A DNA stretch of 64,000 nt, from assembly GCA_046704165.1 (NCBI GenBank), contig JBJKSI010000125.1, forward strand, positions 5,672 through 69,671. The letters run 5' to 3'. Both the position numbers and the translations under genes were made by a program. Every line of letters begins with the position of its first letter. Position 1 is the first letter of the stretch. The notes under the pieces are model-generated. The model did not search any database and had not been told where the DNA came from. It saw nothing but the letters and a program-made list of their open reading frames with translations. Shown here piece after piece: positions 5,962-22,806 of this stretch. The DNA is from Candidatus Acidiferrales bacterium. Its GTDB lineage: Bacteria; Acidobacteriota; Terriglobia; Acidiferrales; UBA7541.

Positions 5962-5995
5962 CTATGCCGGGGCGGGAAAGCGGCGATGGCGCCGA

Positions 5996-7716: not shown

Positions 7717-7867
7717 AGGCAGTTGGGTGGGGCGTGACGTTTGGCATAACCATGATCTGTGATCTGTGCCGTGGGACGGGGTGGTCCTTCCTTCGCAGGG
7801 GTTGGTTTCAGGGGCGGCCTTGGTCTCGGCATGCTGTTCCCCGGGCGGCGGGGCATCGGAGCAGCAT

Positions 7868-8188
7868 ATGGAGTTCCACGATAAGATCCTGAAGTGTGCT
7901 GAATGTGGTGCCGAGTTTGTCTTCACTGCGGGCGAGCAGATGTTTTTCGCCGAAAAGGGTTTCCGCAACGAACCCAAGCGGTGCAAGGCGTGCAAGGCAA
8001 AGCGGGCCCAGAATCCGGGTTCCTCGACGGGTATGGGAAACGGTCACCGGGTGGAAACCCGGACCACCTGCTCTCAATGCGGCAAGGAAACCACGGTGCC
8101 ATTCAAGCCGACGCAGGGGCGCCCGGTTTACTGCCGTGAGTGTTTTCAGCAACGCCGCGCGATGGGCGCCGCCAGCCGACCGTATTAA
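7868..8188 (+). CDS. Zinc-ribbon / CxxC-x17-CxxC domain protein
   Basis: The conserved part starts at ATG 7868 (MEFHDKILKCAECGAEFVFTAGEQMFFAEKGFRNEPKRCKACK ... CSQCGKETTVPFKPTQGRPVYCRECF). It has two Cys4 ribbons. The track ORF from 7766 adds a low-complexity extension that I do not trust. Confidence 0.7.
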   Translation: MEFHDKILKCAECGAEFVFTAGEQMFFAEKGFRNEPKRCKACKAKRAQNPGSSTGMGNGHRVETRTTCSQCGKETTVPFKPTQGRPVYCRECFQQRRAMGAASRPY

Positions 8189-8276
8189 AAGGAACGGCCA
8201 GCGACACCTGATCGCGTGACGGCGGCTTTGGCCGCTTCTCGGTCACCAGGCCTGTAAGATCGGTCGGGGCGGGGGT

Positions 8277-8837
8277 GTGGCGATGGCTCGATTGAGAAGC
8301 AAGAAACAGACGAAGGGGCGGCCGGCGGGCACCGCCGGCCGTCGTTCTCCGGCCGACCGCCATACGCAGATCTTGCGCGATCACTTGGTTCGCCTGCTCT
8401 GCAAGCAACAGGCCCACGCCGGTTTCGACCGCGCGGTGGAGGACTTTCCTCCGGAACTTCGCGGTGTGAGGATTCCCGGTTCGCCGCACACTCCCTGGCA
8501 ACTGCTCGAACACCTCCGCATTGCCCAGTGGGACATTCTCGAATTCTGCCGCAATCCCCGCCACGTCTCGCCGCCCTGGCCCAAGGGCTACTGGCCGCCT
8601 ACCGAAGCACCTCCCGATGATACTGCCTGGCAGAGGAGCGTAGACTCATTCCTCGCCGACCGGCAGGCAATGGTGAACCTGGTGAAGGACCCACATACCG
8701 ACCTATTCGGCAGGATTCCGCACGGCGAGGGCCAGACGATCCTGCGCGAAGCGATGCTCATTGCCGACCACAACGCCTACCACCTGGGCCAGTTCATCCT
8801 GCTGCGGCGACTGGCCGGGGCTTGGGAGACGAGCTGA
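8277..8837 (+). CDS. DinB-family (DinB_2-like) protein
   Basis: 186 aa. WQLLEHLRIAQWDILEF ... IADHNAYHLGQFILLRR matches the DinB four-helix-bundle His motifs. The start (GTG 8277 or ATG 8283) is uncertain. Confidence 0.6.
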   Translation: MAMARLRSKKQTKGRPAGTAGRRSPADRHTQILRDHLVRLLCKQQAHAGFDRAVEDFPPELRGVRIPGSPHTPWQLLEHLRIAQWDILEFCRNPRHVSPPWPKGYWPPTEAPPDDTAWQRSVDSFLADRQAMVNLVKDPHTDLFGRIPHGEGQTILREAMLIADHNAYHLGQFILLRRLAGAWETS

Positions 8838-8961
8838 AGGTCGTAACGTCGGCGCCGCTCGTTGCCGGAAACTTTGGAACAGGGACTTTTCCCCTTAGAC
8901 TGGTTGAGCCTAGAATGCGTGTGTCGATTCTCGGCCGCCGGGTCGAGGAGAGACGGAAACG

Positions 8962-9405
8962 ATGATCCGCTTCCTCAGAGATCGGGACGGCTCAGGTAAG
9001 GAGCCGCGGAACTGGGCGCTGGGACCGCTGGAGATCCGGGTGATGGGTGTGGTCTGGACCGGCGGCGAATACTCGGTGCGCGAGGTGGCGGAGCAGTTGG
9101 ACCGGCCCCTGGCGTATACCACCGTGATGACCACGCTCGATCGCCTCTACAAGAAAGGTTTTCTCACCCGACGGAAAGCCGAACGTGCCTTCCTCTATTC
9201 CCCGCGGCTGCCGCGCCGCGAATGGGAGCGCAAGATTGCAGGGGACCTGCTCAAGGGATTCCTGGCGGGACTGGGGAATTCACGCGAGCAACTGGTGTCC
9301 TTTCTGGTAGACGCGGTGGGGCAGCACGACGAAGAACTGCTTGCGGAACTCGAGAAGAAGATTCGGACGAAACGGAGAAAACTTCTCCGAAGGGGCCCGT
9401 CATGA
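8962..9405 (+). CDS. BlaI/MecI/CopY-family transcriptional repressor
   Basis: 147 aa. Winged-helix segment LGPLEIRVMGVVWTGGEYSVREVAEQLDRPLAYTTVMTTLDRLYKKGFLTRRKAERAFLYSP. The stop overlaps the next gene's start (ATGA). Confidence 0.85.
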   Translation: MIRFLRDRDGSGKEPRNWALGPLEIRVMGVVWTGGEYSVREVAEQLDRPLAYTTVMTTLDRLYKKGFLTRRKAERAFLYSPRLPRREWERKIAGDLLKGFLAGLGNSREQLVSFLVDAVGQHDEELLAELEKKIRTKRRKLLRRGPS

Positions 9406-10382
9406 TCTCGCCTTACTTGCTGCGGCTGCTTTGCCTCTCGTTCGCCACATTTTTCCTGATCTACTTGGCGCTGAACGTGGCGAGCCTGGCCGGCGCGCGC
9501 GCGGCGATCCGGCTGGCCAAACGGCTGCGGCCGCAGGTGGCGGCGCGGCTGCTACTGGCGCTGCGGCTGGCGCCGCTGGCCGTTGCACTGTTCCTGGTGC
9601 TGGGATTGTGCCTGCCGAGTTATCTGCTGCTGGAGCCGGAAGCGCGCGTCGAACGGATCGGACTGGTGTGCCTGGGCGCGGCGCTGGCCGGCGCGGCCGG
9701 CTGGGCGATTTCCGCGTGGCGGGCGCTGCGCGCGATGGCCGTCTCGCTGGCGGATGCGCGACATTTTCGGCACGCGGGACGGTTGCTGTGCGTGGCGGGA
9801 CGGTCGCTGCCGGTCTACGTGATCGACAGCGAGAAACCGCTGCTGGCGTTGGCGGGGATTTTGTGGCCGCGGATCGTAGTTTCTCGGGGCATCGTGAGCG
9901 CGCTTTCTCCGGAACAAATGGACGCGGCGCTTGCCCACGAGCTGGCGCATTGGACTTCGCGGGACAATTTGAAGCGGCTGCTGCTGCTGTTGGCGCCGGA
10001 TCCGTTTCCCTTCTGCCACGGAGCCGGACCGTTGGACCGCAGTTGGGCGAAATTCACCGAATGGCTGGCGGACGATCGGGCGGTAGCGGGCGATTCCGGA
10101 CGTTCGCTCTCGCTGGCCTCAGCACTGGTGCGCGTGGCACGGCTGGGCGCGCCGGCCAGGCACGCGCCGCTGATGGCCACGCTGGCCGCAGCGGACGACG
10201 ATCTCTCAATCCGGGTCGACCGGCTGCTGCGACCCGAGCCGGTTTGCCAGGAGCCTCGCCGACAGACTCGAATGCTGGCGGGCGGCGCGGTAGTGGCGGC
10301 GCTGGGCCTGCTGGCATTCCTGATGCTCCAGCCGGGCACGCTGTATTCGGTCCACCAGCTTCTGGAATTCCTGATTCACTAA
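9402..10382 (+). CDS. BlaR1-like M56-family membrane metalloprotease / signal transducer
   Basis: ATG 9402 overlaps the blaI-like stop. N-terminal TM helices (MISPYLLRLLCLSFATFFLIYLAL). HEXXH zinc motif AHELAHWTSRDNLKRL. No C-terminal penicillin-binding sensor domain is evident. Confidence 0.8.
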   Translation: MISPYLLRLLCLSFATFFLIYLALNVASLAGARAAIRLAKRLRPQVAARLLLALRLAPLAVALFLVLGLCLPSYLLLEPEARVERIGLVCLGAALAGAAGWAISAWRALRAMAVSLADARHFRHAGRLLCVAGRSLPVYVIDSEKPLLALAGILWPRIVVSRGIVSALSPEQMDAALAHELAHWTSRDNLKRLLLLLAPDPFPFCHGAGPLDRSWAKFTEWLADDRAVAGDSGRSLSLASALVRVARLGAPARHAPLMATLAAADDDLSIRVDRLLRPEPVCQEPRRQTRMLAGGAVVAALGLLAFLMLQPGTLYSVHQLLEFLIH

Positions 10383-10439
10383 TCGACGAGACAAGTTGAC
10401 TTGCAGGTGCGGTCGGATTTCGTACGGGCGAATTCTGCG

Positions 10440-10643
10440 AATGGTGACCGAGACGCCGTTGCTGTCGAAGTTGGCGGCGTAGACCATGTTGGTGACCGTA
10501 TTGACCGCGACGGCATCGGGATTCGAACCAACCGTGGGCGAGGCGACCACGCTGTTGGTCGAGCCGTCGATGACCGAGACGGTGCCGCTGGTCTGGTCGG
10601 CAACGTAGATCGTGTTGGTTACCGGGTTCACCGCGATGGCCTC
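10440..10643 (-). pseudogene. Relic fragment of a YVTN-type beta-propeller repeat gene
   Basis: Minus-strand reading gives (stop)EAIAVNPVTNTIYVADQTSGTVSVIDGSTNSVVASPTVGSNPDAVAVNTVTNMVYAANFDSNGVSVTI, about 1.5 YVTN repeats. A TGA lies 4 codons upstream of the only start (GTG 10631). There is no SD. The frame then runs without similarity into the 3' end of the convergent blaR1-like gene. Confidence 0.45.
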
Positions 10644-10688
10644 TCACGCACTCACTGTCAACCCGGTGGAGGGATGAAAACTTTCCGA

Positions 10689-10734
10689 AAAAAGCAACGG
10701 CCGGGCGAGCGAACTGAGTTTCCGGCTTCGCTCG
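10689..10734 (-). terminator. Hairpin plus T-run downstream of the pseudo-receiver gene
   Basis: CGAGCGAA / TTCGCTCG 8-bp stem (10706-10713 / 10727-10734). On the minus strand it is followed after about 11 nt by TTTTTT (10689-10694). Confidence 0.4.
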
Positions 10735-10767
10735 ATTGTGGTTCGGGACGTGGAGACGCGTGTGGGC

Positions 10768-11178
10768 TCAAGCGGCGACGGCGCGGGAGTTGGGTTGTTG
10801 GGCCAGCGCGGCGAGCTGGGCCTCGTTGACGATGCGTTCGATTGCCTCGAGGAATTCGGCCGGCCGGAGGGCCGGAGCGCCGAGACACGGGCTGCCGCGG
10901 TCGAGGATTGGCACCCACCAGAATCCGTCTTCCACAGGGAGGCGATAGAAAGCGGAGCAGCGCGAACGTTCGATTCGGGAGATCAGAGGACTGGCGAGGT
11001 GCAGGGGATGGATGCTGAGGAGCAGGTCGAATGAGTCAGAGGCGGCGAGCGCCAAGGCCTGCTCAACGCCGAGAGCCACCGTGCACGTGCAGTGGAGAGA
11101 CTCAAGGAGCCTGCGCACGCGAAAGAGGCCGTTCGCCGCTTCCCCGAGGAAAAGCGCTCTTGCCGTCGCGTGACCCAT
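10768..11178 (-). CDS. Hypothetical protein with degenerate receiver (REC)-like fold
   Basis: Third-codon-position GC is high. RALFLGEAANGLFRVRRLLESLHCTCTVALGVEQALALAASDSFDLLLSIHPL follows the REC beta-alpha pattern, but the acidic pocket is GE and the phospho-acceptor position is Ser. Start taken as ATG 11178; the track ORF extends to 11301. Confidence 0.4.
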   Translation of the reverse strand: MGHATARALFLGEAANGLFRVRRLLESLHCTCTVALGVEQALALAASDSFDLLLSIHPLHLASPLISRIERSRCSAFYRLPVEDGFWWVPILDRGSPCLGAPALRPAEFLEAIERIVNEAQLAALAQQPNSRAVAA

Positions 11179-12057
11179 GACTACCACTTCCGACAGGTTT
11201 GCCGTTTCCGCGGCGGTTTCTGAGTTCCATTTGAGCGGCCAAAAAATGGGAAGGCAGCGGTTGGCGGTACGATGGATCCAGCCCTGCGGCTGGTACGCCA
11301 TTACCGGAAGGCGTTTTCTTCCTTATCCGTACTCAGCCGCTGCCTATTCTCAGAGGCCGCGGATTGGCAGGTACGCTTCGAATCCCGTAGCTAGCGGGGG
11401 CGGGAATTCGCCGTACCCTGTCGCGAGAAGGGCGCAACCCCCTTTTCGTGCCGGATCGCGACGCTGGTCCTTTCGACCGGTATCGACGCCATCCGTTTTG
11501 CCTCTGAACCAGCACTGCCTAGGTGAGCACGCGAGATGCCAATCCGGCGGGCGGTACGCCTCCGCAAGTCCTTCCTGCGCTGGGCGATGTCTAGGTCGCA
11601 AATGGCGGCGAATCCGCCAAGAGAGACGCTTGGGGACTTTGCCCCAAGCGAGCGAAGAGTGACTCACCGGCGCGGCAAAACACAGGCTGCGTCTCACTGA
11701 ATCCAAAGACACCCGCAAGAGGAATCCTCCGAACGCATTAAACGCAGAACGCTTTTGCTGACCGCTGTCGCGAGCTGCTTTCACAGTGAACTTGGGCGAA
11801 GGGAAATAGTCGCTTCCGCCTTGGGAGTTTTGACGCTGCGCCGTGTGAGTTTTCCCGGGGCAGTTCTCGGGTAGATGCAAAGCGAAACGGTAATCACCAG
11901 ACATTCAAGGACTTGGGTTCATTCCCGAGAAGCTCTCTTTTGGGGACAGGCGTGCACGAACTTTGGCAAAGGCGAAGGCCGGGAAACGCTTCCAGCGGGG
12001 GAAGACGTCGCCGGCCAAGCGCAGCCGCCGCCCGGCGGCCGAGCAAGGAGAAAGACC

Positions 12058-12513
12058 ATGAAAGTAAAAAAGGCGATGACGAAAGAGCTGCAGTGCTGCA
12101 CTCCGTTCGACACGGTAGTGGACGCCGCCCGCCTGATGCAGACACACGACGTGGGCGCCATCCCGGTGATCAAGGACAAGCAGTCGATGCAGTTGGCCGG
12201 CATCATCACCGATCGGGACATCACATGCCGGGTGACCGCGGCTGGCAAGGCGCCGGGAGAAGTTCGCGTGCAGAAGGCGATGACGCCGAATCCGGTGATC
12301 TGCCATCCGGAAGACAGCCTGGACGATTGCGCGTTGCAGATGCAGAAGCACCGGGTGCGGCGTTTGCCGGTGCTCGACGAGAAGGGCGTGCTGGTGGGCA
12401 TCATCGCTCAAGGGGACATCGCGCGGCACCTGAAGGCCGAGAAGGTAGGCCGGACGGTGGCGAAGATTTCGATGCCAATGCGGCCGCGGCCCCTTCGCCA
12501 CGCCGCGGCTTGA
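12058..12513 (+). CDS. CBS-pair (Bateman domain) protein, Hrp1-like
   Basis: ATG 12058 lies 7 nt after AAGGAG. Two CBS motifs (AMTKELQCCTPFDTVVDAARLMQTHDVGAIPVI...GIITDRDI and AMTPNPVICHPEDSLDDCALQMQKHRVRRLPVLDEKGVLVGIIAQGDIARHL). No other domain. Confidence 0.85.
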   Translation: MKVKKAMTKELQCCTPFDTVVDAARLMQTHDVGAIPVIKDKQSMQLAGIITDRDITCRVTAAGKAPGEVRVQKAMTPNPVICHPEDSLDDCALQMQKHRVRRLPVLDEKGVLVGIIAQGDIARHLKAEKVGRTVAKISMPMRPRPLRHAAA

Positions 12514-12598
12514 GCGAAAGCTGGAAAAGCGGTCCGGCCCGGCTTTTGCCGCGGCAGGGGATCGGCGGCGCGCCGGGCCGTGGCCGGGAAAGGCAGCC

Positions 12599-13780
12599 AT
12601 GTTGGAGATGAGTGAAGTGCGCGCTTTTTCGAGTCTGCCGCGGCCGGTGTTGACAGCCTACCTGGATACCCACCCGGCGAAAGCATCGAACCACGGCCCG
12701 ACACCCGAATACCTGACGTGGATGAACGCCGCGGGAAAGGCCTTGTTGACCGGAGTGCCGGCCGAGGAACGGAAGCTGCTGGAGGAGCAGCTGGATCGCG
12801 TGGAGCTCTACCTCCGTGACCGGGTGCGGACGCAGCGGGGGATGCTGGTGTTTGCCGGCGCGGAGTTGTGGCAGCCGGTGCCGCTGCAGGTGGAGGTACA
12901 AAACGAGCTGCATTGGGGCCGACCGGCGCTTTCGCAGTTGCTCGGCCTGCTGAGCCGGTACAAGCCGTACGGCGTGGCGGTGGTGGACCTGAGCGGGACG
13001 CGCTTTTTCCGCTACCACCTCGGCGAACTGAGCGAAATCGAGGAGAAGAAGTTCGAGATCGATATTTCGCACTGGCGGAAGAAGGATATGGGGAAGTTCT
13101 CCCACAAGGACATCACGAAATCGCGGGGAGTGGACCGCGACAACTTCGAGCGGCGGATGGAGGAGCAATACAAGAAGCTGTGCGCGGAAACTGCCCAGCG
13201 CGCGCACCAACTGGCGGAAACACACGGCTTGGTTGCGTTCTTTCTGGTGGGCGAAGACCGGCTGATCGAGGCGATCGCGGAGTCTTTACCGGCTGATTTC
13301 CGACCGCGCGTGGTGAAGATCCAGGAAGACCTGGCGAAGGTAGTCTCGCCGGCGCTGGAAGCGAGGCTGGAGCCGCACGTGGAGGAATGGCAGCGGGCGC
13401 AGCAGTCGGAAATGGTAACATCGCTGCTCGAAGGCAAGCGCGGCACCGTAACCGGACTCGATCGGACTCTCGATGAATTGCAGAACGGAATGGTTCGGTT
13501 GCTGCTGCTCGCCGCCGATCTGGATCCGACACTGCGGCAGTGCACACGCTGCGGCCGGACCGACCGGGCGGATGGGTCCGTCTGCCTCTACTGCGGCGCC
13601 CAGTGCCGAGCGGCGAGTTTGCGCGACGTGTTGCCGGAGTTGGCGTGGAAGCACGGCGTCGAAGTGGAAATCGTGGACGAGAAGACGTCGGAACGACTGC
13701 GGGAGGCGGGCAGCATCGGTGGCTGGCTGCGGCTGCCGAAGCAGAACAGCGCCCGACGCGCGAGCCGGCGAGCGGGATAG
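12599..13780 (+). CDS. Bacterial eRF1/Pelota-like (baeRF-type) protein with C-terminal zinc-ribbon insert
   Basis: 393 aa with a three-domain layout. The central domain is YGVAVVDLSGTRFFRYHLGE...ISHWRKKDMGKFSHKDITKSRGVDRDNFERRMEE. The eRF1_3-like C-domain is VTGLDRTLDELQNGMVRLLLLAADLD..CTRCG..VCLYCG...GVEVEIVDEKTSERLREAGSIGGWLR. There is no GGQ tripeptide anywhere in the protein. Confidence 0.7.
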   Translation: MLEMSEVRAFSSLPRPVLTAYLDTHPAKASNHGPTPEYLTWMNAAGKALLTGVPAEERKLLEEQLDRVELYLRDRVRTQRGMLVFAGAELWQPVPLQVEVQNELHWGRPALSQLLGLLSRYKPYGVAVVDLSGTRFFRYHLGELSEIEEKKFEIDISHWRKKDMGKFSHKDITKSRGVDRDNFERRMEEQYKKLCAETAQRAHQLAETHGLVAFFLVGEDRLIEAIAESLPADFRPRVVKIQEDLAKVVSPALEARLEPHVEEWQRAQQSEMVTSLLEGKRGTVTGLDRTLDELQNGMVRLLLLAADLDPTLRQCTRCGRTDRADGSVCLYCGAQCRAASLRDVLPELAWKHGVEVEIVDEKTSERLREAGSIGGWLRLPKQNSARRASRRAG

Positions 13781-13859
13781 CGGGGAAAAGCCGCCGACGG
13801 GCCCTTCAGGCAGCGCATTGAAGCGGTAAGCGCCAGGGGAAGGGCGAGCGGCCGGATCG

Positions 13860-16800
13860 ATGAGCAGGCTCGCCAGGATCGTGAAAAGCAAGAGCGCGGG
13901 CTACGTTGCCGCGGTGCTGGGCGTGGCCGCAGCGACGGTGGTTTGCGCCGCGGTGCGCGGCGACATCACCGCCGGAACGGCCGCGCTCGCAATGCTATTG
14001 GTGGTGCTTTTCGTGGCGGCCGGCTGGGGCAGCCGGCCTGCATTCCTGGCATCGATCGTCGGAGTGCTCAGCCTGAGTTTCTTCTTCCTGCCGCCCATCT
14101 ACAGACTGACCATGCGCGATCCACGAAACTGGATCGACCTACTCGTTTTTTTTGTCACCGCATTCATTGCGGGTCAACTCTCCGAGCGATCGAGACGGCG
14201 TGAACAGGCGCTGCGCGAAAGCGAGGCAAACCTCAATACGGCGCAGAAGATCGCCGAGCTGGGAAGCTGGCACCTGGACATTGCACACAACCGGCTGACA
14301 TGGTCGGCGGAAGTGTTCCGCATGTTTGGAATGCCCGAGTCGGCGGTGCCGACCTACGAAATATTCTTGGACAAGGTGCATCCGGAAGACAGGGAGTTGG
14401 TGGATCGGGCCTGGCAGGATGCTCTGACGGGCGGGCACTACGACATCGAACATCGTTTGCTGGTGAGTGGCGAAGAGAAATGGGTGCGGGAAATGGCTCG
14501 GGTACGGCTGGACGCAAGCGGCAATGCCATCGAAGGAATCGGTACGGTGCAGGACATCACCGAGCGGAAGCGGAACGAGGCGGCGCTGCGGAGATCGAAC
14601 GAGGAGATGCAGGACCTGGCGCGGTTGCAGGCGACCGTGGCCGATCTGGGACAGCGAGCACTGAAGCACAGGTCGCCGGAGGAGGTAGCCGACGACGTGA
14701 CGAGCCGGGTGGCGCTGACGCTGAACGTGGACTATTGCAAGATCCTGGAATTCCTGCCGGACCGGCAGGCACTGCTGCTGCAATCGGGCGTGGGCTGGAA
14801 GCCGGGTAGCGTGGGCCACGCGACGGTGGGGATCGGCGCGGAATCGCAGGCCGGATACGCGCTGGAGACAGAGCAGCCCGTGGTGGTGCAGGACTTGAAA
14901 ACGGAAAAACGCTTCCAGGGGACTTCACTGCTGCACGAGCACGGCGTGGTGAGCGGCATCAGCGTCGTAATCCCAACCAAGGAAGGTCCCTACGGCGTGC
15001 TCAGCGTGCATTCGCGCACACGGCGGACCTTCAGCACGAACGAGGTGAACTTCCTGCAGTCGGTGGCCAACGTGCTCGGCTCGGCCATCGAGCGCCAGCA
15101 CGCCGAGATTGAACTGTGGCGGATCAACCGCGCGCAGCGCGCACTGAGCAAGTGCAACGAGGCTCTGATCCGGGCGAGTGACGAGACGGCGTTGCTACAG
15201 CAGGTGTGCTCGATCGTGGTGGAAGAGGCTGGCTACCGCTTCTGCTGGGTGGGGCGCGCGGAGCAGGACGAGCCGCGAACAGTGCGGCCGGTGGCCAAGG
15301 CGGGATTCGAGGCCGGGTACCTGGACAGCCTGGCAATCAGCTGGGCCGACACGGAGCGGGGGCGCGGGCCGGCGGGGTTGAGCGTGCGAACGCGCCAGAC
15401 TGTGGTGGCGAGGAACATCGCTACCGATCCGAAAATGGCGCCGTGGCGCGAGGAGGCGCTGAAGCGGGGCTATGCGTCGTGCCTGGCGATTCCACTGCTG
15501 ATCGATTCGAGCGTGTTCGGCTCGATCCTGATCTACGCCTCGGACCCGGAAACCTTCGGCCCCGAGGAGGTGAATCTGCTGACGGAGATGGCCTCGGATC
15601 TTGCATTTGGCATTACCACGTTGCGGACGCGGGCCGAGCGCGCCCGGGCGGAAGAGGAGGTGCGCAGGCTGAACGCGGAGCTGGAGCAGAGGGTGGCGCG
15701 CCGCACGGCACAGCTGCAGAAGGCGACCCGCGAGTTGGAACAGGCACGCGAGCGGGAGATGGAGGTGGGTTCGCGCATCCAGCAGACGCTGCTGCTCGAT
15801 CAGCCGCCGCAGGACGTGCCCGGACTGGGTGTGGCGGCGCTGACGGTGCCCTCGCAAAAGATCGACGGCGATTTCTACATTTTCCTGAAACACGGGGACG
15901 AGTCGATGGACGTGATTCTGGGAGACGTGATGGGGAAAGGCGTTCCGGCGGCATTGCTAGGATCGGCCACGAAGAGCCAGTTTCTGAAAGCGTTCACGCG
16001 CCTGCTGGACCTTTCGAAGGGGCGGGCGCTGCCGGAACCGCGTGAAGTGGTGATGCTGGCGCACGCGGGGCTGGTGCGCGAGTTGATCAACCTGGAGAGC
16101 TTCGTGACGCTGTGCTACGCGCGGCTGGATGCGGGCCGCCGGCGAATGGACCTGGTCGATTGCGGGCACACGGGAATCCTGCACTGGCGCGGCCGGACGG
16201 GGTTGTGCGAGATGCTGCACGGCAAGAACCTGCCGCTCGGCGTGGTGGAAGGGGAGATTTACGAACAGTTCACCGTTCCGGTGGAGGAGGGCGACCTGCT
16301 GTTGCTGTTCTCCGACGGGATCACCGAGGCGCGGAACGCGGCCAAGGAGCCGTTTGGCATCCAGCGACTGGAAGAATGCGTGCGGGCCTATCGAGAACTG
16401 GACCTGAGCGAACTGCTGGAGGCGATCCGGCGGGAAGTGGTAGCCTTTTCCGGCTCCGAGCAGCTGACGGACGATCTGACCAGCGTGGTGATCCGCGTGG
16501 CGGAGGCCGTGCGGCCGGTGAGGACCGCGGAAACCGCGATCCGGAGCGAGTTGACGCAGTTGCGGCGTGCGCGCGAATTCGTGCGTCAGTTCTGCCGGGA
16601 CCGCTCCGTTCCGGCACTGGGCCAGAAATGCGTGGAAGGGCTGGAGTTGGCGGTGAGCGAGGCGGCCAGCAATATCATGAAACACGCCTACCGCGGCCGG
16701 ACCGACCAGTGGATCGGGCTGGACGGAGAAGCGTTTGAGGATCGGGTGCTGTTCCGGCTGCATCATTTCGGCGAGCCGTTCGATCCGACGATGGCGAAAC

Positions 16801-16964
16801 CACCGGTGCTGGACGGGTCTTGCGAATCAGGGTTTGGTGTCTATCTGATTACTCAAATTACCGACAGTGTGCGTTACTATCGCGACGAGCGCGGACGAAA
16901 CTGCGTGGAGCTTATGAAGATCTGCAAATCCCCCGTACGTGAAAGCGAGACTGCATGGAACTAG
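13860..16964 (+). CDS. Multidomain sensor: DUF4118-like TM module, PAS, 2x GAF, coiled coil, PP2C/SpoIIE phosphatase, RsbW/SpoIIAB-like HATPase
   Basis: 1034 aa. KdpD-type membrane N-terminus. PAS (ELGSWHLDIAHNRLTWSAEVFRMFG...IEGIGTVQDITERKRNE). Two GAF regions. SpoIIE motifs (IDGDFYIF, ILGDVMGKGVPAALL, LLLFSDGITEA). C-terminal anti-sigma-kinase-like N-box and G-box (LAVSEAASNIMKHAY, ESGFGVYLI). Confidence 0.85.
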   Translation: MSRLARIVKSKSAGYVAAVLGVAAATVVCAAVRGDITAGTAALAMLLVVLFVAAGWGSRPAFLASIVGVLSLSFFFLPPIYRLTMRDPRNWIDLLVFFVTAFIAGQLSERSRRREQALRESEANLNTAQKIAELGSWHLDIAHNRLTWSAEVFRMFGMPESAVPTYEIFLDKVHPEDRELVDRAWQDALTGGHYDIEHRLLVSGEEKWVREMARVRLDASGNAIEGIGTVQDITERKRNEAALRRSNEEMQDLARLQATVADLGQRALKHRSPEEVADDVTSRVALTLNVDYCKILEFLPDRQALLLQSGVGWKPGSVGHATVGIGAESQAGYALETEQPVVVQDLKTEKRFQGTSLLHEHGVVSGISVVIPTKEGPYGVLSVHSRTRRTFSTNEVNFLQSVANVLGSAIERQHAEIELWRINRAQRALSKCNEALIRASDETALLQQVCSIVVEEAGYRFCWVGRAEQDEPRTVRPVAKAGFEAGYLDSLAISWADTERGRGPAGLSVRTRQTVVARNIATDPKMAPWREEALKRGYASCLAIPLLIDSSVFGSILIYASDPETFGPEEVNLLTEMASDLAFGITTLRTRAERARAEEEVRRLNAELEQRVARRTAQLQKATRELEQAREREMEVGSRIQQTLLLDQPPQDVPGLGVAALTVPSQKIDGDFYIFLKHGDESMDVILGDVMGKGVPAALLGSATKSQFLKAFTRLLDLSKGRALPEPREVVMLAHAGLVRELINLESFVTLCYARLDAGRRRMDLVDCGHTGILHWRGRTGLCEMLHGKNLPLGVVEGEIYEQFTVPVEEGDLLLLFSDGITEARNAAKEPFGIQRLEECVRAYRELDLSELLEAIRREVVAFSGSEQLTDDLTSVVIRVAEAVRPVRTAETAIRSELTQLRRAREFVRQFCRDRSVPALGQKCVEGLELAVSEAASNIMKHAYRGRTDQWIGLDGEAFEDRVLFRLHHFGEPFDPTMAKPPVLDGSCESGFGVYLITQITDSVRYYRDERGRNCVELMKICKSPVRESETAWN

Positions 16965-17314
16965 CTACCGACACTACCGGCAACGTAGCCGTGGTCGAGA
17001 TCCCCGTTGACGAGTTGGATGCCAGCAACGCCGGAGAACTGAAGCGCGACATCGCTCCGGTGCTGGAAAGCCACACACGTCTGGTGATCGACATGAGCCG
17101 GCTGCGTTTCATCGATAGCTCCGGGCTGGGCGCGATGCTCTCGTGCTTGCGGCAGGTGAGCGCCAAACAGGGCGACCTGAAGCTGTGCTGCATGACGCGG
17201 CAGGTTCGCGGCACGTTCGAACTGGTGCGCATGCACCGCATCTTCGACATCTTTCCCACGCGGGAGGAAGCCGTGCGCGCATTCCGTGCTCAAGGGGACG
17301 GGCACGCGAAATGA
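16955..17314 (+). CDS. STAS-domain anti-sigma-factor antagonist (SpoIIAA/RsbV-like)
   Basis: 119 aa. LVIDMSRLRFIDSSGLGAMLSCLRQV carries the conserved phosphorylatable Ser in DSSGLG. It overlaps the sensor gene by 10 nt and glgP by 4 nt (ATGA). Confidence 0.9.
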   Translation: MELATDTTGNVAVVEIPVDELDASNAGELKRDIAPVLESHTRLVIDMSRLRFIDSSGLGAMLSCLRQVSAKQGDLKLCCMTRQVRGTFELVRMHRIFDIFPTREEAVRAFRAQGDGHAK

Positions 17315-19764
17315 ACCCCTCGGTCAACGCCGTGGACGAGGCGGCAGCGAGCATCGAGGAAGCAATCTGCCGGCACGCGAAGTATTCGCTGGGTAAGGCG
17401 TGGCCGGATCTTTCCCCGCAAGACCGGTTCGCAGCGGTAGCGCTGGCCGTGCGCGACCGGATGGTGGACGGAATGCTGGAGACCGAGCGGCGGTGCGGGC
17501 GGGAAGACCCCAAGCGGTTGCATTACCTCTCCATCGAATTCCTGATCGGGCAGTCGTTGGGCAATAACCTGCGAAACCTGGGCCTTCGGGACGCGTGCCG
17601 GCAGGCTCTGCGGAACCTGGGCGCCAGCCTGGAGGAAATCGAGGAGAGCGAGCCGGACGCAGCGCTGGGCAACGGTGGGCTGGGGCGGCTGGCGGCCTGC
17701 TTCCTGGATTCGCTGGCCACGCTGCGTCTGCCCGGCTACGGCTATGGGATCAACTACGAGTACGGCTTGTTCAAGCAGGAGATCGACAACGGATACCAGC
17801 GGGAGAAGCCGGAGAACTGGCTGGCGCAAAGCAGTCCCTGGCAGATCGAGCGGCCCGATGAAGCCTGCATAGTGCCGGTCTACGGACGGATCGAGCACGG
17901 CGTGGATCGCCAAGGCGTCTACAACCCGATGTGGATGGACTGGAAGCTGCTGATCGGTGTTCCCTACGACATGCTCATCCCGGGTTACGGCGGGGAGGCG
18001 GTGCACGTTCTACGGCTCTACGCGGCGCGATCGTCCCACGATTTCGACATGCAGATCTTCAACGACGGTGATTATTTCAAAGCCGTGGAGCAGAAGATCG
18101 CCTCGGAGACCGTGTCGAAGGTGCTTTACCCTTCGGACGCAGTGATCGCCGGGCACGAGCTGCGGCTGGTGCAGGAGTACTTCCTGGTGGCCTGCGCACT
18201 GCGCGACATCGTGCGCCGGTTCGAGCAGCGGCACACGGACTTTCGCGAACTGCCGGGCAAGGCAGCCATCCAGCTGAACGACACGCATCCGGCGCTGGCG
18301 GTGACGGAGCTGATGCGAATCCTGGTGGACGAGAAGAGCCTGGAGTGGGAAGAGGCGTGGGAGATCACGCGGGCCACGCTGGCCTACACGAACCATACGC
18401 TAGCGCCGGAAGCGCTGGAGAAATGGCCGGTACCACTGCTGGAATCCATGCTGCCGCGACACTTGCAGCTGATCTACGAAATCAATGGGCGTTTCCTGCG
18501 GCAGGTGGCCGCGGCCTTTCCCGGCGACAGGGCCCGGCAACAGCGCATGTCGCTGATCGAGGAATCGGCGACGAAGCAGGCGCGCATGGTGAACCTGGCA
18601 ATTGTTGGCAGCCATTCGGTGAACGGCGTTTCGAAGATTCATACGAAGGCGTTTGAGACGATGCTGGTTCCCGATTTCTACGAGCTGTGGCCGGAGAAAT
18701 TTTCCAACAAAACGAACGGCATCACGCAGCGGCGCTGGCTGCTCGAGGCCAATCCGCGGCTGGCGGACCTGATCACGTCGACCATCGGCGACGGTTGGAT
18801 TACCGACCTGGACCGGTTGCGGGAACTCGAACGATTTTCCGAGGATTCGGGCTTTCAATCGGCTTTCGCCAAGATCAAGCGCGCGAACAAGGAGCATCTG
18901 GCCGAGATCATCCGCGAAACCACTCGGGTGGAGGCGAACCCGGATTCGCTCTTTGACGTCCACGTGAAGCGGATTCACGTTTACAAGCGGCAACTGCTGA
19001 ATGTGATGCACGTGGTGCACGAATATCTCTCTCTGATCGAGGACGGAACGACGCCGGCGGCGCCGCGAACCTTCCTCTTCGCCGGCAAGGCGGCGCCCGG
19101 CTACCGTCTCGCCAAGCAGATCATCAAGCTGATTCACAATGTGGCGCGCGTCATCAATCGCGACCCACGGGCGGCCGAGTGGATCAAGGTGGGTTTTCTG
19201 CCGGACTATCGTGTGTCGCTGGCTGAGAAGATCTTTCCCGCCGCCGACCTCAGCGAGCAGATCTCGACCGCCGGGACGGAAGCTTCAGGCACGAGCAACA
19301 TGAAGCTGGCGCTGAGCGGCGCGATCACTATCGGTACGCTCGACGGGGCCAACATCGAAATTCTCGAAGAGGTAGGCAGGGAGAACATGTTCCTCTTCGG
19401 CAAGCAGACGGCGGAGCTTCGGGCGATGCGCGAAGCGGAATCCTACCACCCGCAGGAAATCTGCAAGCGGGATCCTCGCGTACAGCGGGTCGTCGAAGCG
19501 TTCAATTCGCGGCTGTTCTGCCCCGGGGAGCCGGGCCTTTTCGCCTGGGTGCCTCCGATGCTGCTCGATCCCGGCGACAAATACTTCCACCTGGCCGATT
19601 TTCCAGACTGCCTCGGGGCGCACGAGCGAGCGGCACAGGCGTACGTCGATACGGGCCGGTGGCGGCGCATGTCAATCCTGAACGTGGCGCGCATCGGGAG
19701 GTTTTCGAGCGATCGCACGGTGGCGGAGTATGCGCGGGAGATCTGGCAGCTGAAAAGCGTATAG
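17311..19764 (+). CDS. glgP: Glycogen/maltodextrin phosphorylase
   Basis: Start ATG 17311 (MNPSVNAVDEAAASIEEAICRHAKYSLGK). YLSIEFLIGQSLGNNL, NGGLGRLAACFLDS, and the PLP-Lys motif EQISTAGTEASGTSNMKLALSGAITIGTLDGANIEI. The track ORF from 17143 is an out-of-context upstream extension. Confidence 0.95.
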   Translation: MNPSVNAVDEAAASIEEAICRHAKYSLGKAWPDLSPQDRFAAVALAVRDRMVDGMLETERRCGREDPKRLHYLSIEFLIGQSLGNNLRNLGLRDACRQALRNLGASLEEIEESEPDAALGNGGLGRLAACFLDSLATLRLPGYGYGINYEYGLFKQEIDNGYQREKPENWLAQSSPWQIERPDEACIVPVYGRIEHGVDRQGVYNPMWMDWKLLIGVPYDMLIPGYGGEAVHVLRLYAARSSHDFDMQIFNDGDYFKAVEQKIASETVSKVLYPSDAVIAGHELRLVQEYFLVACALRDIVRRFEQRHTDFRELPGKAAIQLNDTHPALAVTELMRILVDEKSLEWEEAWEITRATLAYTNHTLAPEALEKWPVPLLESMLPRHLQLIYEINGRFLRQVAAAFPGDRARQQRMSLIEESATKQARMVNLAIVGSHSVNGVSKIHTKAFETMLVPDFYELWPEKFSNKTNGITQRRWLLEANPRLADLITSTIGDGWITDLDRLRELERFSEDSGFQSAFAKIKRANKEHLAEIIRETTRVEANPDSLFDVHVKRIHVYKRQLLNVMHVVHEYLSLIEDGTTPAAPRTFLFAGKAAPGYRLAKQIIKLIHNVARVINRDPRAAEWIKVGFLPDYRVSLAEKIFPAADLSEQISTAGTEASGTSNMKLALSGAITIGTLDGANIEILEEVGRENMFLFGKQTAELRAMREAESYHPQEICKRDPRVQRVVEAFNSRLFCPGEPGLFAWVPPMLLDPGDKYFHLADFPDCLGAHERAAQAYVDTGRWRRMSILNVARIGRFSSDRTVAEYAREIWQLKSV

Positions 19765-19772
19765 CGGGGATT

Positions 19773-19804
19773 TTCCGCCGGAACTTTCGAGGTGTGCGGC
19801 GGAA
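19773..19804 (+). terminator. Weak hairpin after glgP
   Basis: TTCCGCCG / CGGCGGAA 8-bp stem with a 16-nt loop, starting 9 nt after the glgP stop and followed by GGGAATTTTA. The large loop makes this tentative. Confidence 0.3.
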
Positions 19805-19882
19805 GGGAATTTTAGAGATAGAGGGTTGAAGCTCCCCGCTACAGGGTTCGAGCACTGGGCACTGGCACGAGGGAATCGTTAA

Positions 19883-19955
19883 TGGGCCCGCCTGGATTCG
19901 AACCAGGGACCGATGGATTATGAGTCCACTGCTCTGACCGCTGAGCTACGGGCCC
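19883..19955 (-). tRNA. tRNA with CAT anticodon (elongator Met, or Ile2 if lysidine-modified)
   Basis: The reverse complement GGGCCCGTAGCTCAGCGGTCAGAGCAGTGGACTCATAATCCATCGGTCCCTGGTTCGAATCCAGGCGGGCCCA folds as a cloverleaf. Acceptor stem GGGCCCG/CGGGCCC, D stem GCTC/GAGC, anticodon loop CTCATAA, T arm CCTGG-TTCGAAT-CCAGG. A paired 1:72 base pair argues against an initiator tRNA. CCA is not encoded. Confidence 0.9.
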
Positions 19956-19965
19956 CGCAGCCCTA

Positions 19966-19994
19966 ACTATAGGCGATGCCGCGGTTTCTTGCAT
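19966..19994 (-). promoter_or_regulatory. Candidate sigma70-type promoter for the tRNA
   Basis: On the minus strand: ATGCAA, 17 nt, TATAGT. The -10 element ends about 10 nt upstream of the tRNA 5' end. The -35 element is weak (3/6). Confidence 0.35.
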
Positions 19995-20199
19995 CAGGCG
20001 CGTGCGTCGGCGGGCTGTTGAAAACGGCCAGTTGGGGAGCGGACGGCTGCCGGGAAGGACACCGGACTGATTGCTGCGGCCCGCCGATTCCCGCTAATCT
20101 GATAAGATGTCTGGCATGGGGGGGGTGCCGAGCTGATGGAGTTGCCTTCTCCTAGGCCGGTTATGCGGTGATCAGAAACCGGGCGCCACACGAGGTACC

Positions 20200-20973
20200 G
20201 TGCGCAGGGAGAACGACGTCGCGAAGCTGGACACGCCGGCTTCCCGAACCTCGCAGGAGCGACCCGCAGACCGGGAGAGTAGTTTGAAAACGAATTGCAC
20301 GGAATGCCCCATCCTCAACAACACACTTTTCCGCAGCCTCTCGACCGACCAGGTGTCGAGGTTCAATTGCATCTTTCGTCCCGCGCACTACCGAAGAAAC
20401 CAGATCATTTTCTTCGAGGGTGGCGCGGCCGATCACCTGTTCGCCATGAATTCCGGACTGGTGAAACTGGTGAAGTCGCTTGAGAACGGCCGGGAGCGCA
20501 TCACGCGCGTCCTCTTTCCCGGTGAGCTGTTCGGCCTGGAGGCGCTGAGCGAAGAGACGTATCCACTGACGGCGGTGGTGCTGCACGATGCCAAGATCTG
20601 CGCCATTCCCTGCCGGGAGTTTTTCTCTTTCCTGCACGGCAATTCCGATATTTCGCTCGACATGATCCGTTTCCTGCTGGGCGAACTCTCCCGGATGCGG
20701 AAGCAGATGACGGCGATGAGTTTCAAGGACGCCCGAGCGCGGGTGGCAATGTTCGTACTATCGCTGCTCTCGCCGGAGTTGTTGGGTAGTGGGCAGGCCT
20801 GCTCGCTCACGCTGCCCGTGACGAGCCACGAGATCGGCGAGATCCTGGAGCTCTCTCCCGAGACAGTCAGCCGGGCCTGGAGCTTCCTGCGTAGGGAAGG
20901 CCTGATTGAAAAGCGTGGCCGGGAACTGGTGATTCAGAACCTGCAGGGACTCGAAGGAGCGGCCAGCCGCTGA
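20200..20973 (+). CDS. Crp/Fnr-family transcriptional regulator
   Basis: cNMP-binding-like barrel (IIFFEGGAADHLFAMNSGLVKLVKSLENGRERITRVLFPGELFGLEAL) and C-terminal HTH (TSHEIGEILELSPETVSRAWSFLRREGLI). The start is uncertain; an in-frame TTG at 20284 follows GGGAGAG. Confidence 0.85.
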   Translation: MRRENDVAKLDTPASRTSQERPADRESSLKTNCTECPILNNTLFRSLSTDQVSRFNCIFRPAHYRRNQIIFFEGGAADHLFAMNSGLVKLVKSLENGRERITRVLFPGELFGLEALSEETYPLTAVVLHDAKICAIPCREFFSFLHGNSDISLDMIRFLLGELSRMRKQMTAMSFKDARARVAMFVLSLLSPELLGSGQACSLTLPVTSHEIGEILELSPETVSRAWSFLRREGLIEKRGRELVIQNLQGLEGAASR

Positions 20974-20995
20974 GTCTGGCGTGTTCCTCCCGGAT

Positions 20996-21018
20996 TTCTC
21001 CCCGTCGACGAAGGGGAG
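20996..21018 (+). terminator. Hairpin after the Crp/Fnr gene
   Basis: TCTCCCC-GTCGACGAA-GGGGAGA (7-bp stem) located 23 nt after the stop. No U-tract. Confidence 0.3.
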
Positions 21019-21104
21019 AGCCTTGCCGGAGTCGCGGCCGCCCGGGCAAACGGATTTGGGAAAAACGGTCTTCCCGCCGCATTGAACGCCTCATCTAAAC
21101 CTAC

Positions 21105-21134
21105 TAGTTGGCCAAATTAAAGCAATTAGTTGGC
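21105..21134 (+). repeat. Direct repeat TAGTTGGC x2 in an AT-rich island upstream of the propeller/haem operon
   Basis: TAGTTGGC occurs at 21105-21112 and 21127-21134, a 22-nt register (about two helical turns). It is embedded in CTAGTTGGCCAAATTAAAGCAATTAGTTGGCGCTAG, one of the most AT-rich stretches I noticed by eye. It is followed by TTGACT (21141) and by TTGACG-17 nt-TAGCGT (21176-21204). Confidence 0.35.
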
Positions 21135-21290
21135 GCTAGATTGACTTTTGCCATCCTACTTTAGCTCATCCGTCATTGACGCTGTTTCCCCCCTTGCCTA
21201 GCGTTACCAGACTGCCTTTGCGGGCAAACGCAGTTCAGCCAGCTCTTTAGCGGCATTCTTCGGGCCGGTTCGCATGCGGTCCAAGGGGAA

Positions 21291-22799
21291 TTGGAAACGG
21301 TGGAACAGGGCGGTGGCAGGAATCCAAGAACTTCAAGGTTTGAAAACGTATACCGAATCGTCCCGGTTATTGCGTTCCTCGTGGTTTTAGGCCTCGCCTT
21401 CGGCATTACGAGACAGTCCTTTGCAAGACCGGAACCGAGGTCGGCCGGCGTGTTGCCGCCGATCATCTTTGTCGAGGCACCGGTGGTAGTGCCTGGCTCT
21501 CCGTCGACGCGTTTTCCCCGCGGAAGCCATTTGGCACTTCTTCCACCGGCCACGCCCGCCACTACTCCTGTAAACCTGACCCCGGACTTCTTCGCCGCGG
21601 CTGATCCGCAGGTTTCCTTCGATGGCCGCCGGGTGCTCTTTGCCGGGCGGAAGACGCGGGCTGGGCACTGGCAGATCTGGGAAATGAACGTCGACGGCAC
21701 GGGCAAGAAACAGATCACCAGTGGCCGCGCGGACTGTTTCCGTCCGGCCTATCTGCCCCGAAACGAAATCGTCTACACGAGGGTGAGCGCACAGGAAGGC
21801 GCGCGCACGTCGGCGATCTACGTGGCCGGCCTGGACGGTTCCGGCGCCCATCCGATCACGTTTGGGCCCGGCGATTTCCGCGTGGAAGCCGTGCTGCACA
21901 GTGGACGAATCCTGATTTCGGCCGGATCGCGGCTGGTTTCCGGCCGCCGAGTCGAAGGATCACGGGTGTTCTACACGGTGCGAACGGATGGCTCTGGACT
22001 CAGCCTGTTTCGCTGGGACCGCCATGCGGGCGTGGTGCAGGGCGGAGCGGTTGAACTGAGGAACGGCACGGTTCTCTTCGTGGAGCGGAGAGACGGCCCT
22101 GATCGCGTAGGCGGCGGCGAGTTGGCGTGGTTCCGGCCGGGCGCGCTGCAGGATTCAAGGATCACCGCACCAGGCGCGGTTTACTGGTCGGCCAAGCGGC
22201 TGGATGGAGACCGTTTGGTTGTGGCAAAGAGGAGTTCCGACGGTCGCGGCGCGCAGGGCACATTCGGCCTCTACGTTTTCGATCTGGCCAGGCAGTCGGT
22301 GGGCAAGGCGATCTATCGCAATCCGAAGCTCTCCAGCGTGGAAGCGGTGGCCGTGGAGCCGCGTCGCGTGCCCAGGGAATATTGGAGCATCCTGCATCCC
22401 AAGCGCGATTACGGCCGGCTGATCTGCCTGAACGCCTATCTTTCCTCCGATGTGGCCTCGGGACGGCTCTCGGGAGAGATCGCTCGAGTGCGAGTGGTCG
22501 CGCTGGAACACCACCGGCAGAGAACCCTGGGCGAGGCGCCGGTGGAAAGCGACGGCTCGTTCTACGTAAAGGTGCCGGCTAATCGCCCGATTCGGTTCGA
22601 GTTGCTGAACGCGAAGGGAAAGGTGATCCACCAGCAGCAGAGCTGGATCTGGGCGCGCACGGGCGAGGACGTGCCTTGCCTGGGCTGCCATGAGAGCAAG
22701 GCGCTGGCGCCGCAGGATCGCTGGCCGCTGGCGCTGAGGGCACCCGGCGCTCCGTTTCCGCTCGGCGTGCCGGCGACTTCCCATTCCGCAACACATTGA
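21291..22799 (+). CDS. Membrane-anchored TolB-like beta-propeller protein with HzsA-like C-terminal module carrying one CxxCH haem-c motif
   Basis: 502 aa. TM helix IVPVIAFLVVLGLAFGI. TolB-type blades (PQVSFDGRRVLFAGRKTRAGHWQIWEMNVDGTGKKQIT; IYVAGLDGSGAHPITFG). C-terminal DGSFYVKVPANRPIRFELLNAKGKVI..WIWARTGEDVPCLGCHE. The start is a TTG and is uncertain. Confidence 0.6.
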   Translation: METVEQGGGRNPRTSRFENVYRIVPVIAFLVVLGLAFGITRQSFARPEPRSAGVLPPIIFVEAPVVVPGSPSTRFPRGSHLALLPPATPATTPVNLTPDFFAAADPQVSFDGRRVLFAGRKTRAGHWQIWEMNVDGTGKKQITSGRADCFRPAYLPRNEIVYTRVSAQEGARTSAIYVAGLDGSGAHPITFGPGDFRVEAVLHSGRILISAGSRLVSGRRVEGSRVFYTVRTDGSGLSLFRWDRHAGVVQGGAVELRNGTVLFVERRDGPDRVGGGELAWFRPGALQDSRITAPGAVYWSAKRLDGDRLVVAKRSSDGRGAQGTFGLYVFDLARQSVGKAIYRNPKLSSVEAVAVEPRRVPREYWSILHPKRDYGRLICLNAYLSSDVASGRLSGEIARVRVVALEHHRQRTLGEAPVESDGSFYVKVPANRPIRFELLNAKGKVIHQQQSWIWARTGEDVPCLGCHESKALAPQDRWPLALRAPGAPFPLGVPATSHSATH

Positions 22800-22806
22800 G
22801 GAGTTT

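Follow-up and report, generated by a model that had tools for sequence, protein, structure and literature searches.

The question raised by this locus is whether five consecutive genes on one strand act as a single dormancy and energy-reserve module. They encode a CBS-domain protein, an eRF1-like protein, a membrane sensor carrying PP2C phosphatase and RsbW-like kinase domains, a STAS protein and a glycogen phosphorylase (GlgP), and they lie in a 64,000-nucleotide stretch of a Candidatus Acidiferrales bacterium genome (contig JBJKSI010000125.1) that was analyzed as a whole and is called the window below. A preliminary description of this DNA had proposed such a module. Our analysis suggests that the string is probably made of two separately conserved stress units that were joined in one lineage: unit A (12058-13780), which contains the CBS and eRF1-like genes and would serve ribosome hibernation, and unit B (13860-19764), which contains the sensor, STAS and GlgP genes and would combine partner switching with glycogen breakdown. 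The starvation theme of the original proposal fits each of the parts, but the five genes are not conserved as one unit.

The five genes and all of their coordinates were reproduced, and Pfam agreed with each of the domain calls that had been made from the translations (Table 1). Gaps of 85 nucleotides (nt) at 12514-12598 and 79 nt at 13781-13859 separate the CBS, eRF1-like and sensor genes. The sensor and STAS genes overlap by 10 nt (16955-16964), and the STAS and GlgP genes overlap by 4 nt, read as ATGA at 17311-17314, where the start codon of GlgP shares bases with the stop codon of STAS. A terminator scan found no plus strand terminator-like site between the five genes, and none of the intergenic hairpins of the string surpassed shuffled sequence.

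Table 1. Features of the window discussed in the text, in order of position
Feature	Position	Strand	Evidence or remark
Enolase	4531-5826	-	Beside GlgC
GlgC-type glucose-1-phosphate adenylyltransferase	5996-7228	-	Pfam NTP_transferase and LbH_GLGC
Conserved non-coding structured element, about 300 nt	11244-11545	Unsettled, + favored	RNAalifold, five copies
CBS-pair protein gene	12058-12513	+	151 aa; Pfam CBS x2, E = 8e-30
Balon-family (baeRF family 10) gene	12599-13780	+	393 aa; Pfam PF18854, 63.4 bits
Membrane sensor gene	13860-16964	+	1034 aa; DUF4118-PAS-GAF-GAF-SpoIIE-HATPase_c_2 (Pfam)
Single-domain STAS gene	16955-17314	+	119 aa; Pfam STAS, E = 1.4e-20
GlgP gene (GT35)	17311-19764	+	817 aa; Pfam Phosphorylase, 1027 bits
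Weak hairpin 3' of the GlgP stop	19771-19806	+	Folding energy -16.8 kcal/mol, z = -1.0
Convergent tRNA-Met (CAU), boundary of the string	19883-19955	-	ARAGORN; Rfam tRNA, 74.6 bits
Crp/FNR-family regulator	20200-20973	+	Downstream of the tRNA; Pfam cNMP_binding and HTH_Crp_2

The conservation of the string was examined from both of its halves. The first scan was seeded with an alignment of homologs of the eRF1-like protein, which we assign below to the Balon family, and used one genome per species; it produced 36 loci, most of which carry Acidobacteriota or Terriglobia labels. The second scan was seeded with GlgP in metagenomes and produced 80 loci with 53-76% GlgP identity and flanks of up to 8 kb. 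Searching the Balon loci by tblastn with the window proteins recovered the complete string in only one of the 36 (L001, 68% Balon identity). It was found again in two loci, L129 and L130, that were reached through a look-up of a 72%-identical Balon homolog and that also share the upstream synteny of the window (enolase, GlgC, S21, BlaI and BlaR). Two loci with 58% Balon identity (L002 and L003) have kept the CBS and Balon genes, while the sensor, STAS and GlgP genes are gone, and the remaining 33 are likewise devoid of these three genes. No CBS or eRF1-like gene was present in the flanks of any of the 80 GlgP-seeded loci. Because the full string is limited to the closest relatives and the GlgP loci carry neither gene of unit A, we regard the string as a lineage-specific juxtaposition; because each half is conserved alone, the 79-nt junction between the Balon and sensor genes is taken to be a recent join. 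A gene-neighborhood survey of this kind had been set beforehand as the refuting test for the single module, and conservation of the string beyond the window, L001 and the L129/L130 pair was not borne out.

Unit B contains the parts of a partner-switching system. The PP2C domain of the sensor (PF07228, E = 2.3e-40) has DGDFY, GDVMGKG, SDG and DD motifs that are invariant in 28 homologs. In its kinase domain (16530-16960; PF13581, HATPase_c_2, E = 2.4e-18) the N-box and the G2 box are conserved or invariant in the 28 fused homologs, whereas the G1 box reads H-x-G-x-x-F-D and not D-x-G in 28 of 28 (L037-L116). The stand-alone RsbW-like kinases that accompany a second, distant clade of STAS proteins (L122, L125) retain the G1 Asp. 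Judging from these residues, the fused RsbW-like domain may have an altered use of nucleotide or may be a pseudokinase. The predicted phospho-acceptor of the STAS protein is Ser55 in the motif FIDSSGLG, and the D-S-x-G within it is invariant in the second clade as well. The STAS protein is strongly conserved: the top 120 of 2319 homologs are all at least 70% identical. GlgP aligns with positions 2-713 of the 713 positions of PF00343 and contains the pyridoxal phosphate-lysine motif EASGTSNMK.

The link between the STAS and GlgP genes was quantified in testable relatives, for which a GlgP identity of 66% or more and no less than 450 nt of sequence upstream of GlgP were required. A STAS gene lies within 600 nt upstream of GlgP and on the same strand in 28 of these 33 relatives, and two further relatives have zwf (glucose-6-phosphate dehydrogenase) inserted between the two genes. 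The fraction with an upstream STAS gene falls with GlgP identity, to 7/16 at 60-65% and 2/14 below 60%. The genes that flank the sensor-STAS-GlgP trio are not conserved, and the junctions are tight (-17 to +21 nt). GlgX (isoamylase) is a frequent convergent neighbor. At least seven distinct arrangements preserve the link of STAS or partner switching to GlgP. The fused sensor, STAS and GlgP trio of the window is seen by Pfam in L117, L120 and L121; the phosphatase and kinase are two genes in L056; PP2C, sensor, Hpt, STAS and a stand-alone kinase precede GlgP in L069; and a single REC-PP2C-kinase-STAS open reading frame (ORF) precedes it in L078. Two STAS genes are followed by GlgP with a 4-nt overlap in L097 and L098. 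The order is reversed in L077, L080 and L104, where STAS comes after GlgP and a kinase may or may not accompany it (GlgP-STAS-RsbW in L077), and a REC-PP2C gene lies 6 nt 3' of GlgP in L101, L102 and L116. In L119, a DUF4118-PAS histidine kinase, a REC protein and a REC-SpoIIE-HATPase_c_2 protein are followed by STAS and GlgP; by its domain content, the input that the window protein carries as a fusion arrives there through a predicted phosphorelay.

The second STAS clade is 35-40% identical to the window STAS. It includes Hpt-STAS-RsbW-GlgP operons (L122, L124 and L126) in metagenome-assembled genomes (MAGs) labeled as NC10 or Verrucomicrobiae, and one GlgP-STAS-RsbW operon (L125). Counting the NC10- and Verrucomicrobiae-labeled loci as two phyla was rejected; they were counted as one lineage because their downstream synteny is shared. 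Taken over both clades, the STAS-linked loci point to the glycogen/glucose-1-phosphate node as their common denominator.

Other loci show the module beside a different enzyme. In L123 (6001-8293) and L127 (6001-8210), both Syntrophorhabdaceae-labeled, an Hpt/REC-PP2C/STAS/RsbW module lies beside UDP-glucose pyrophosphorylase, which replaces GlgP, and in L128 (6001-9311), on a contig with 39% GC, the same module lies beside a convergent GlgC-like pair that replaces GlgP. Two apparent fusions were set aside, the first of them as evidence of a STAS-GlgP interaction. A REC-PP2C-kinase-STAS protein runs into GlgP in L109 (5212-9216), where GlgP is without its first ~144 residues; the near-twin L078 has a stop after STAS and a full GlgP, and the fusion is likely a deletion or an assembly artifact. 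The 1684-aa GlgP ORF of L096 is a high-GC run-on.

In the mechanism that we propose for unit B, the sensor input (DUF4118-PAS-GAF-GAF) would tune the balance between its own PP2C phosphatase and RsbW-like kinase, and this balance would determine the phosphorylation of STAS Ser55. GlgP would be translationally coupled to STAS. We infer that one phospho-form of STAS may bind GlgP and alter its activity, analogous to the action of HPr on GlgP of Escherichia coli, and that starvation or redox signals could thus gate the mobilization of glycogen. A direct relationship between STAS and GlgP is favored because the STAS gene stays adjacent, the junctions are tight or overlapping and no sigma factor gene was found in the annotated loci. 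In its full form the proposal is tentative and, in our estimate, has the odds against it: the STAS protein would be a phosphorylation-dependent direct regulator of GlgP, and elsewhere of other glucose-1-phosphate enzymes, so that partner switching would act on a storage-carbon catabolic enzyme across several lineages, and the ~300-nt element upstream of the string would in addition represent a new structured RNA class tied to hibernation genes.

Several known systems resemble unit B in part. In HptB-HsbR-HsbA of Pseudomonas aeruginosa and SypE-SypA of Vibrio fischeri, a fused PP2C phosphatase and RsbW-like kinase acts on a small STAS protein, and SypA acts on polysaccharide production and not on a sigma factor. 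The window has the same fused PP2C-kinase and small STAS protein as these two systems and Rv1364c, and some of its relatives match the REC input and Hpt protein of the HptB pathway. The window differs from all three in its input, which is DUF4118-PAS-GAF-GAF and not REC, in its linked gene, which is the catabolic GlgP and not a flagellar, biofilm or sigma gene, and in the replacement of the kinase G1-box Asp by His. The icfG cluster of Synechocystis (slr1856-slr1861) comprises two STAS proteins, the PP2C phosphatase IcfG, the RsbW-like kinase Slr1861 and the isoamylase slr1857 (PMC12329169). As in unit B, a glycogen-degrading enzyme is embedded in a partner-switching set that is tied to carbon and glucose metabolism; however, the enzyme there is a debranching isoamylase and not GlgP, the known output is SigC, and none of the components is fused to another. 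HPr binds, phosphorylates and regulates GlgP of E. coli (PMC13324651; reviewed in PMC11046441). This small phospho-protein, which changes the activity of GlgP by binding to it, is a functional analogy for the proposed STAS-GlgP step, but HPr is a His-phosphocarrier of the phosphotransferase system with a fold unrelated to STAS, and a role for STAS is not described. In Anabaena, HenR/All4160 is a partner-switching-like STAS phospho-switch that directly regulates a polysaccharide enzyme (bioRxiv 10.64898/2026.04.08.717354); the enzyme belongs to a different family and acts in exopolysaccharide synthesis, in contrast to the breakdown of a storage glucan here. A comprehensive 2024 review of prokaryotic alpha-glucan enzymes mentions no protein regulator of bacterial GlgP other than HPr (PMC11046441), and our search of the open-access literature found no paper linking partner switching, STAS proteins or anti-sigma antagonists to glycogen phosphorylase. 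Within that literature the link of partner switching to GlgP is new, whereas the Balon family and its vicinity to Hrp1 were already known. The earlier statement that no described system has this combination thus holds for the combination, but not for the eRF1-like family, which had been described as Balon in 2024.

The output of unit B could also be a different one. In the main rival reading, which is possible though we consider it doubtful, the unit works as canonical partner switching does, on a sigma factor or another regulator encoded elsewhere, and GlgP is a co-transcribed member of the regulon and no direct target of STAS. The RsbW-like domain has the classic anti-sigma fold, and Rv1364c of Mycobacterium tuberculosis, whose domains are ordered similarly, has SigF as its target. 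Slr1861 of the icfG cluster is likewise an anti-SigC factor despite the isoamylase in its cluster (PMC12329169). Against a sigma output, no gene with Sigma70 among its listed Pfam families was found in the 11 Pfam-annotated loci or among the Pfam-scanned ORFs of the window, and STAS stays beside GlgP also in loci that have neither a kinase nor a phosphatase close by (L097/L098, L080 and L104). In addition, enzymes of the glucose-1-phosphate node stand in for GlgP in other lineages, the STAS protein is unusually conserved (70-80% identity), and outputs other than sigma factors are documented, as in HenR/All4160 (bioRxiv 10.64898/2026.04.08.717354).

For unit A, the identity of the eRF1-like protein comes from both profile and structure searches. 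The protein scores above the cut-off of 27.1 bits for baeRF_family10 (Table 1). A profile of its family has its best match in the PDB to Balon of Mycobacterium smegmatis, Msmeg1130 (MSMEG_1130; 8v9j_z, E = 7.8e-16, residues 17-378), and matches archaeal and eukaryotic release factors far more weakly. An AlphaFold2 model of the Balon homolog (predicted local distance difference test score, pLDDT, 87.7) gave the same answer in Foldseek, where the top matches were ribosome-bound Msmeg1130 (8v9j_z and 8v9l_z; TM 0.77-0.84, root-mean-square deviation 3.4-3.7 A), further Balon structures ranked next, and aRF1/eRF1 had a TM of ~0.4-0.5. The translation contains neither the GGQ string of peptide release nor the NIKS string of stop codon recognition, as is the case in Balon. 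These comparisons of sequence and predicted fold place the eRF1-like protein in the Balon family of ribosome hibernation factors, of the bacterial aeRF1-like type.

Burroughs and Aravind were the first to define the Balon family, under the name baeRF-1 and with an association with HPF, in 2019 (PMC6514570). Together with EF-Tu(GDP), Balon fills the A site of ribosomes that are idle or translating; both Rv2629 and Msmeg1130 are inhibitors of translation in vitro; and Balon genes reside in stress operons, with one mycobacterial copy near Hrp1 (PMC10901736). The parallel that the preliminary description had drawn with Rv2629 and Hrp1 of M. tuberculosis was therefore well chosen: Rv2629 is a structurally characterized Balon factor, and a mycobacterial copy has been reported near Hrp1. 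The window protein shares the three-domain aeRF1-like fold of the Balon proteins of P. urativorans, M. smegmatis (Msmeg1130) and M. tuberculosis (Rv2629), and its best matches in sequence and structure are to ribosome-bound Balon; its family is likewise found amid stress genes (those for universal stress protein (USP), Hsp20 and HPF), and an Hrp1-type CBS neighbor is present as in mycobacteria. It is, however, only ~18% identical to Msmeg1130, and there are local differences. A Cys4 zinc ribbon (CxxC...CxxC; C315, C318, C329 and C332) is invariant in the family alignment and is kept in the window protein. The ribbon apparently occupies the insertion site of the C-domain, where the AlphaFold2 model has short strands and where many baeRF families bear a two-strand insert (PMC6514570); any correspondence to the EF-Tu-binding hairpin of Balon is putative. 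At the position of the HP motif, through which the N domain of Balon contacts the decoding center, FIHPL of Msmeg1130 aligns with ALSQL, and the family has an invariant E-x-x-W-G-x-P instead. One loop reads SRGVDRD in the window protein (RGVD or RGAD in its clade) compared with the GSQ-like TRGSQRD of more distant family members, so that the GSQ-like form has been lost in the window clade. The Gln of the TRGSQRD loop in those distant members recalls the catalytic release factors. By homology, the window protein would sit in the A site of idle ribosomes without peptide release.

The CBS protein consists of two CBS domains and nothing else. Rv2626c/Hrp1 of the M. tuberculosis DosR regulon (1Y5H) matches it at E = 5.4e-17, including the string DIARHL, but ranks fourth among the CBS proteins of the PDB; the 1Y5H construct stops short of the C-terminal tail on which the likeness to Hrp1 had originally been noted, and the comparison covers the rest. 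The likeness is therefore genuine but generic, with three CBS proteins of the PDB scoring better. The two proteins have the same two-CBS architecture, a similar size and a Balon gene nearby, although the window protein is no nearer to Hrp1 than to other CBS-pair proteins, and its gene is directly adjacent to the Balon gene (85 nt), compared with a distance of a few genes in M. tuberculosis.

Of the 36 Balon loci, 14 have a CBS-pair gene at most 700 nt from the Balon gene, in same-strand upstream, divergent or convergent orientation, and 18 have tandem USP genes. Other recurrent neighbors are Hsp20, a fusion of HPF with a cold-shock domain (HPF-CSD), Crp/FNR, PFK, a phosphoribosyltransferase (PRTase), and PpsA-like and GroEL-like proteins. 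The USP, Hsp20, Crp/FNR, PFK, PRTase and HPF-CSD families were assigned by Pfam on one representative per cluster, and the PpsA-like and GroEL-like labels were assigned by sequence inspection alone. This gene content resembles that of the DosR regulon. Archaea are reported to have CBS modules fused to HPF/RaiA-type hibernation factors, HibA (PMC13324472) and AHA (PMC12934967). The archaeal fusions also couple a CBS module to a ribosome hibernation factor, and they differ from the window in that the CBS protein here is bacterial, is encoded by a separate gene and lies beside a factor of the Balon type. In view of the archaeal fusions, energy sensing by CBS domains for hibernation is a reasonable inference, and the adjacent CBS protein of unit A would couple hibernation to the adenylate or energy status of the cell.

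Unit A is preceded by a conserved element. The ~750 nt upstream of the string had been described as lacking a convincing ORF, which remains correct (a 184-aa minus strand ORF in this stretch has no Pfam match), but the stretch is not empty and contains the ~300-nt structured block listed in Table 1. Further copies occur in L001 (5063-5371), L002 (8717-9013), L003 (1457-1725) and L129 (7749-8056), and the window copy is 70-72% identical to those of L001, L002 and L003. The distance from the element to the CBS start downstream of it is 450-520 nt in every copy, even where the neighboring minus strand ORF is absent. RNAalifold predicted 89 pairs in 12 helices from the five sequences, and 18 of the pairs have changes on both sides; shuffled alignments gave 8.5 +/- 1.9 such pairs (0 of 500 reached 18) and slid controls gave 0-5. 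The element shows no codon periodicity (p = 0.59), no frame is open across the five copies, and Rfam gave no match to it even at E <= 10. From G-U counts, 92.8% of the cells are paired on the plus strand as opposed to 87.0% for the mirrored structure on the minus strand, a comparison that favors the strand of the prediction. An nhmmer search over the window and the loci fetched up to that point returned the known copies only, and the later search of L129/L130 gave one more. With five related sequences, the element is a promising structured-RNA candidate, perhaps a leader or a small RNA, and may control or accompany the CBS-Balon pair.

The account given above has several points against it. The CBS-Balon link consists of adjacency alone, and the distant CBS neighbors are ~30% identical to the window protein. 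The fused sensor may not be active as a kinase, given the invariant His in place of the G1 Asp throughout the fused clade, and the operon linkage of unit B suits mere co-expression equally well as contact between STAS and GlgP. The taxonomic labels of MAGs are unreliable, as the NC10/Verrucomicrobiae case illustrates, and the sample of the second clade was seeded from STAS proteins adjacent to GlgP, which biases it toward GlgP contexts. Most of the GlgP-linked loci are probably Acidobacteriota, so that part of the 28 in 33 reflects shared descent. Finally, three relatives keep both units joined with short gaps and no terminator between them, and co-transcription and functional integration are therefore possible in the lineage of the window.

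The last of these points bears on the original idea that all five genes form one co-transcribed dormancy operon linking energy sensing, ribosome silencing, signaling and glycogen use. The common strand, the short gaps and overlaps, the lack of an internal plus strand terminator-like site and the gene order preserved in L001, L129 and L130 are in its favor, as are the fit of every part to a starvation theme and the presence of GlgC and enolase upstream. We nevertheless judge it unlikely, for the combination is restricted to relatives whose Balon identity is 68% or higher, the remaining 35 Balon loci and every one of the 80 GlgP loci lack it, and either half is conserved without the other. That the STAS-GlgP adjacency is inherited synteny with no functional meaning is very improbable: most of the linked loci are indeed related (60-76% GlgP identity, probably one phylum), but the trio is conserved while its flanking genes are not, and the link outlasts at least seven rearrangements and domain reshufflings, spans annotated loci of 39% to 63% GC and has tight junctions.

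Acidobacteriota abound in soil, grow slowly and are hard to culture, and the control of their carbon reserves is largely obscure. Three things make the locus valuable: the linkage of sensor, STAS and GlgP, the pairing of CBS with Balon, and the RNA candidate upstream. If the reading of two joined units is correct in its details, the sensor-STAS-GlgP circuit would provide a concrete route from environmental sensing to glycogen mobilization outside enterobacteria and would enlarge the short list of partner-switching systems with outputs other than sigma factors. The CBS-Balon pairing would be for bacteria what the CBS-HPF fusions are for archaea and offers a handle on how energy status is passed to ribosome hibernation. 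The upstream element, having no Rfam match, could be a new structured RNA family.

The remaining features concern the boundaries and surroundings of the string. Its end had been placed at a hairpin and a convergent tRNA. The tRNA was confirmed and is the sole Rfam match over the string region. The hairpin is present but unconvincing as a terminator, since it does not rise above shuffled sequence, has no more than four U on its 3' side and was not called by the terminator scan. A scan of 10300-20300 gave no sigma-70-like promoter and no plus strand terminator, although such a scan is uninformative for Acidobacteriota, and palindromes of the FNR type (TTGA-N6-TCAA) or CRP type were not found in 9000-21500.

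Upstream, enolase and GlgC lie 5-7 kb from the string, and GlgC is syntenic in L002, L004, L005 and L129 with 82-91% identity. They are followed on the plus strand (7519-10382) by genes for ribosomal protein S21, a treble-clef zinc-finger protein, a DinB-family protein and a BlaI/BlaR-like pair. Synteny of the block from enolase to BlaI/BlaR (4531-10382) extends to L129 and, in part, to L002, L004 and L005. Downstream of the tRNA, the Crp/FNR-family regulator belongs to a cluster (C6) that recurs in 6 Balon loci, sometimes after a small STAS-like ORF (C18) with no Pfam match. Three ORFs farther downstream (21291-26477) appear unrelated to the string: the first has a middle domain like that of hydrazine synthase alpha, the second encodes a TAT-signal FG-GAP/ASPIC protein, and the third encodes a protein with a beta-propeller and a part resembling di-heme cytochrome c peroxidase.

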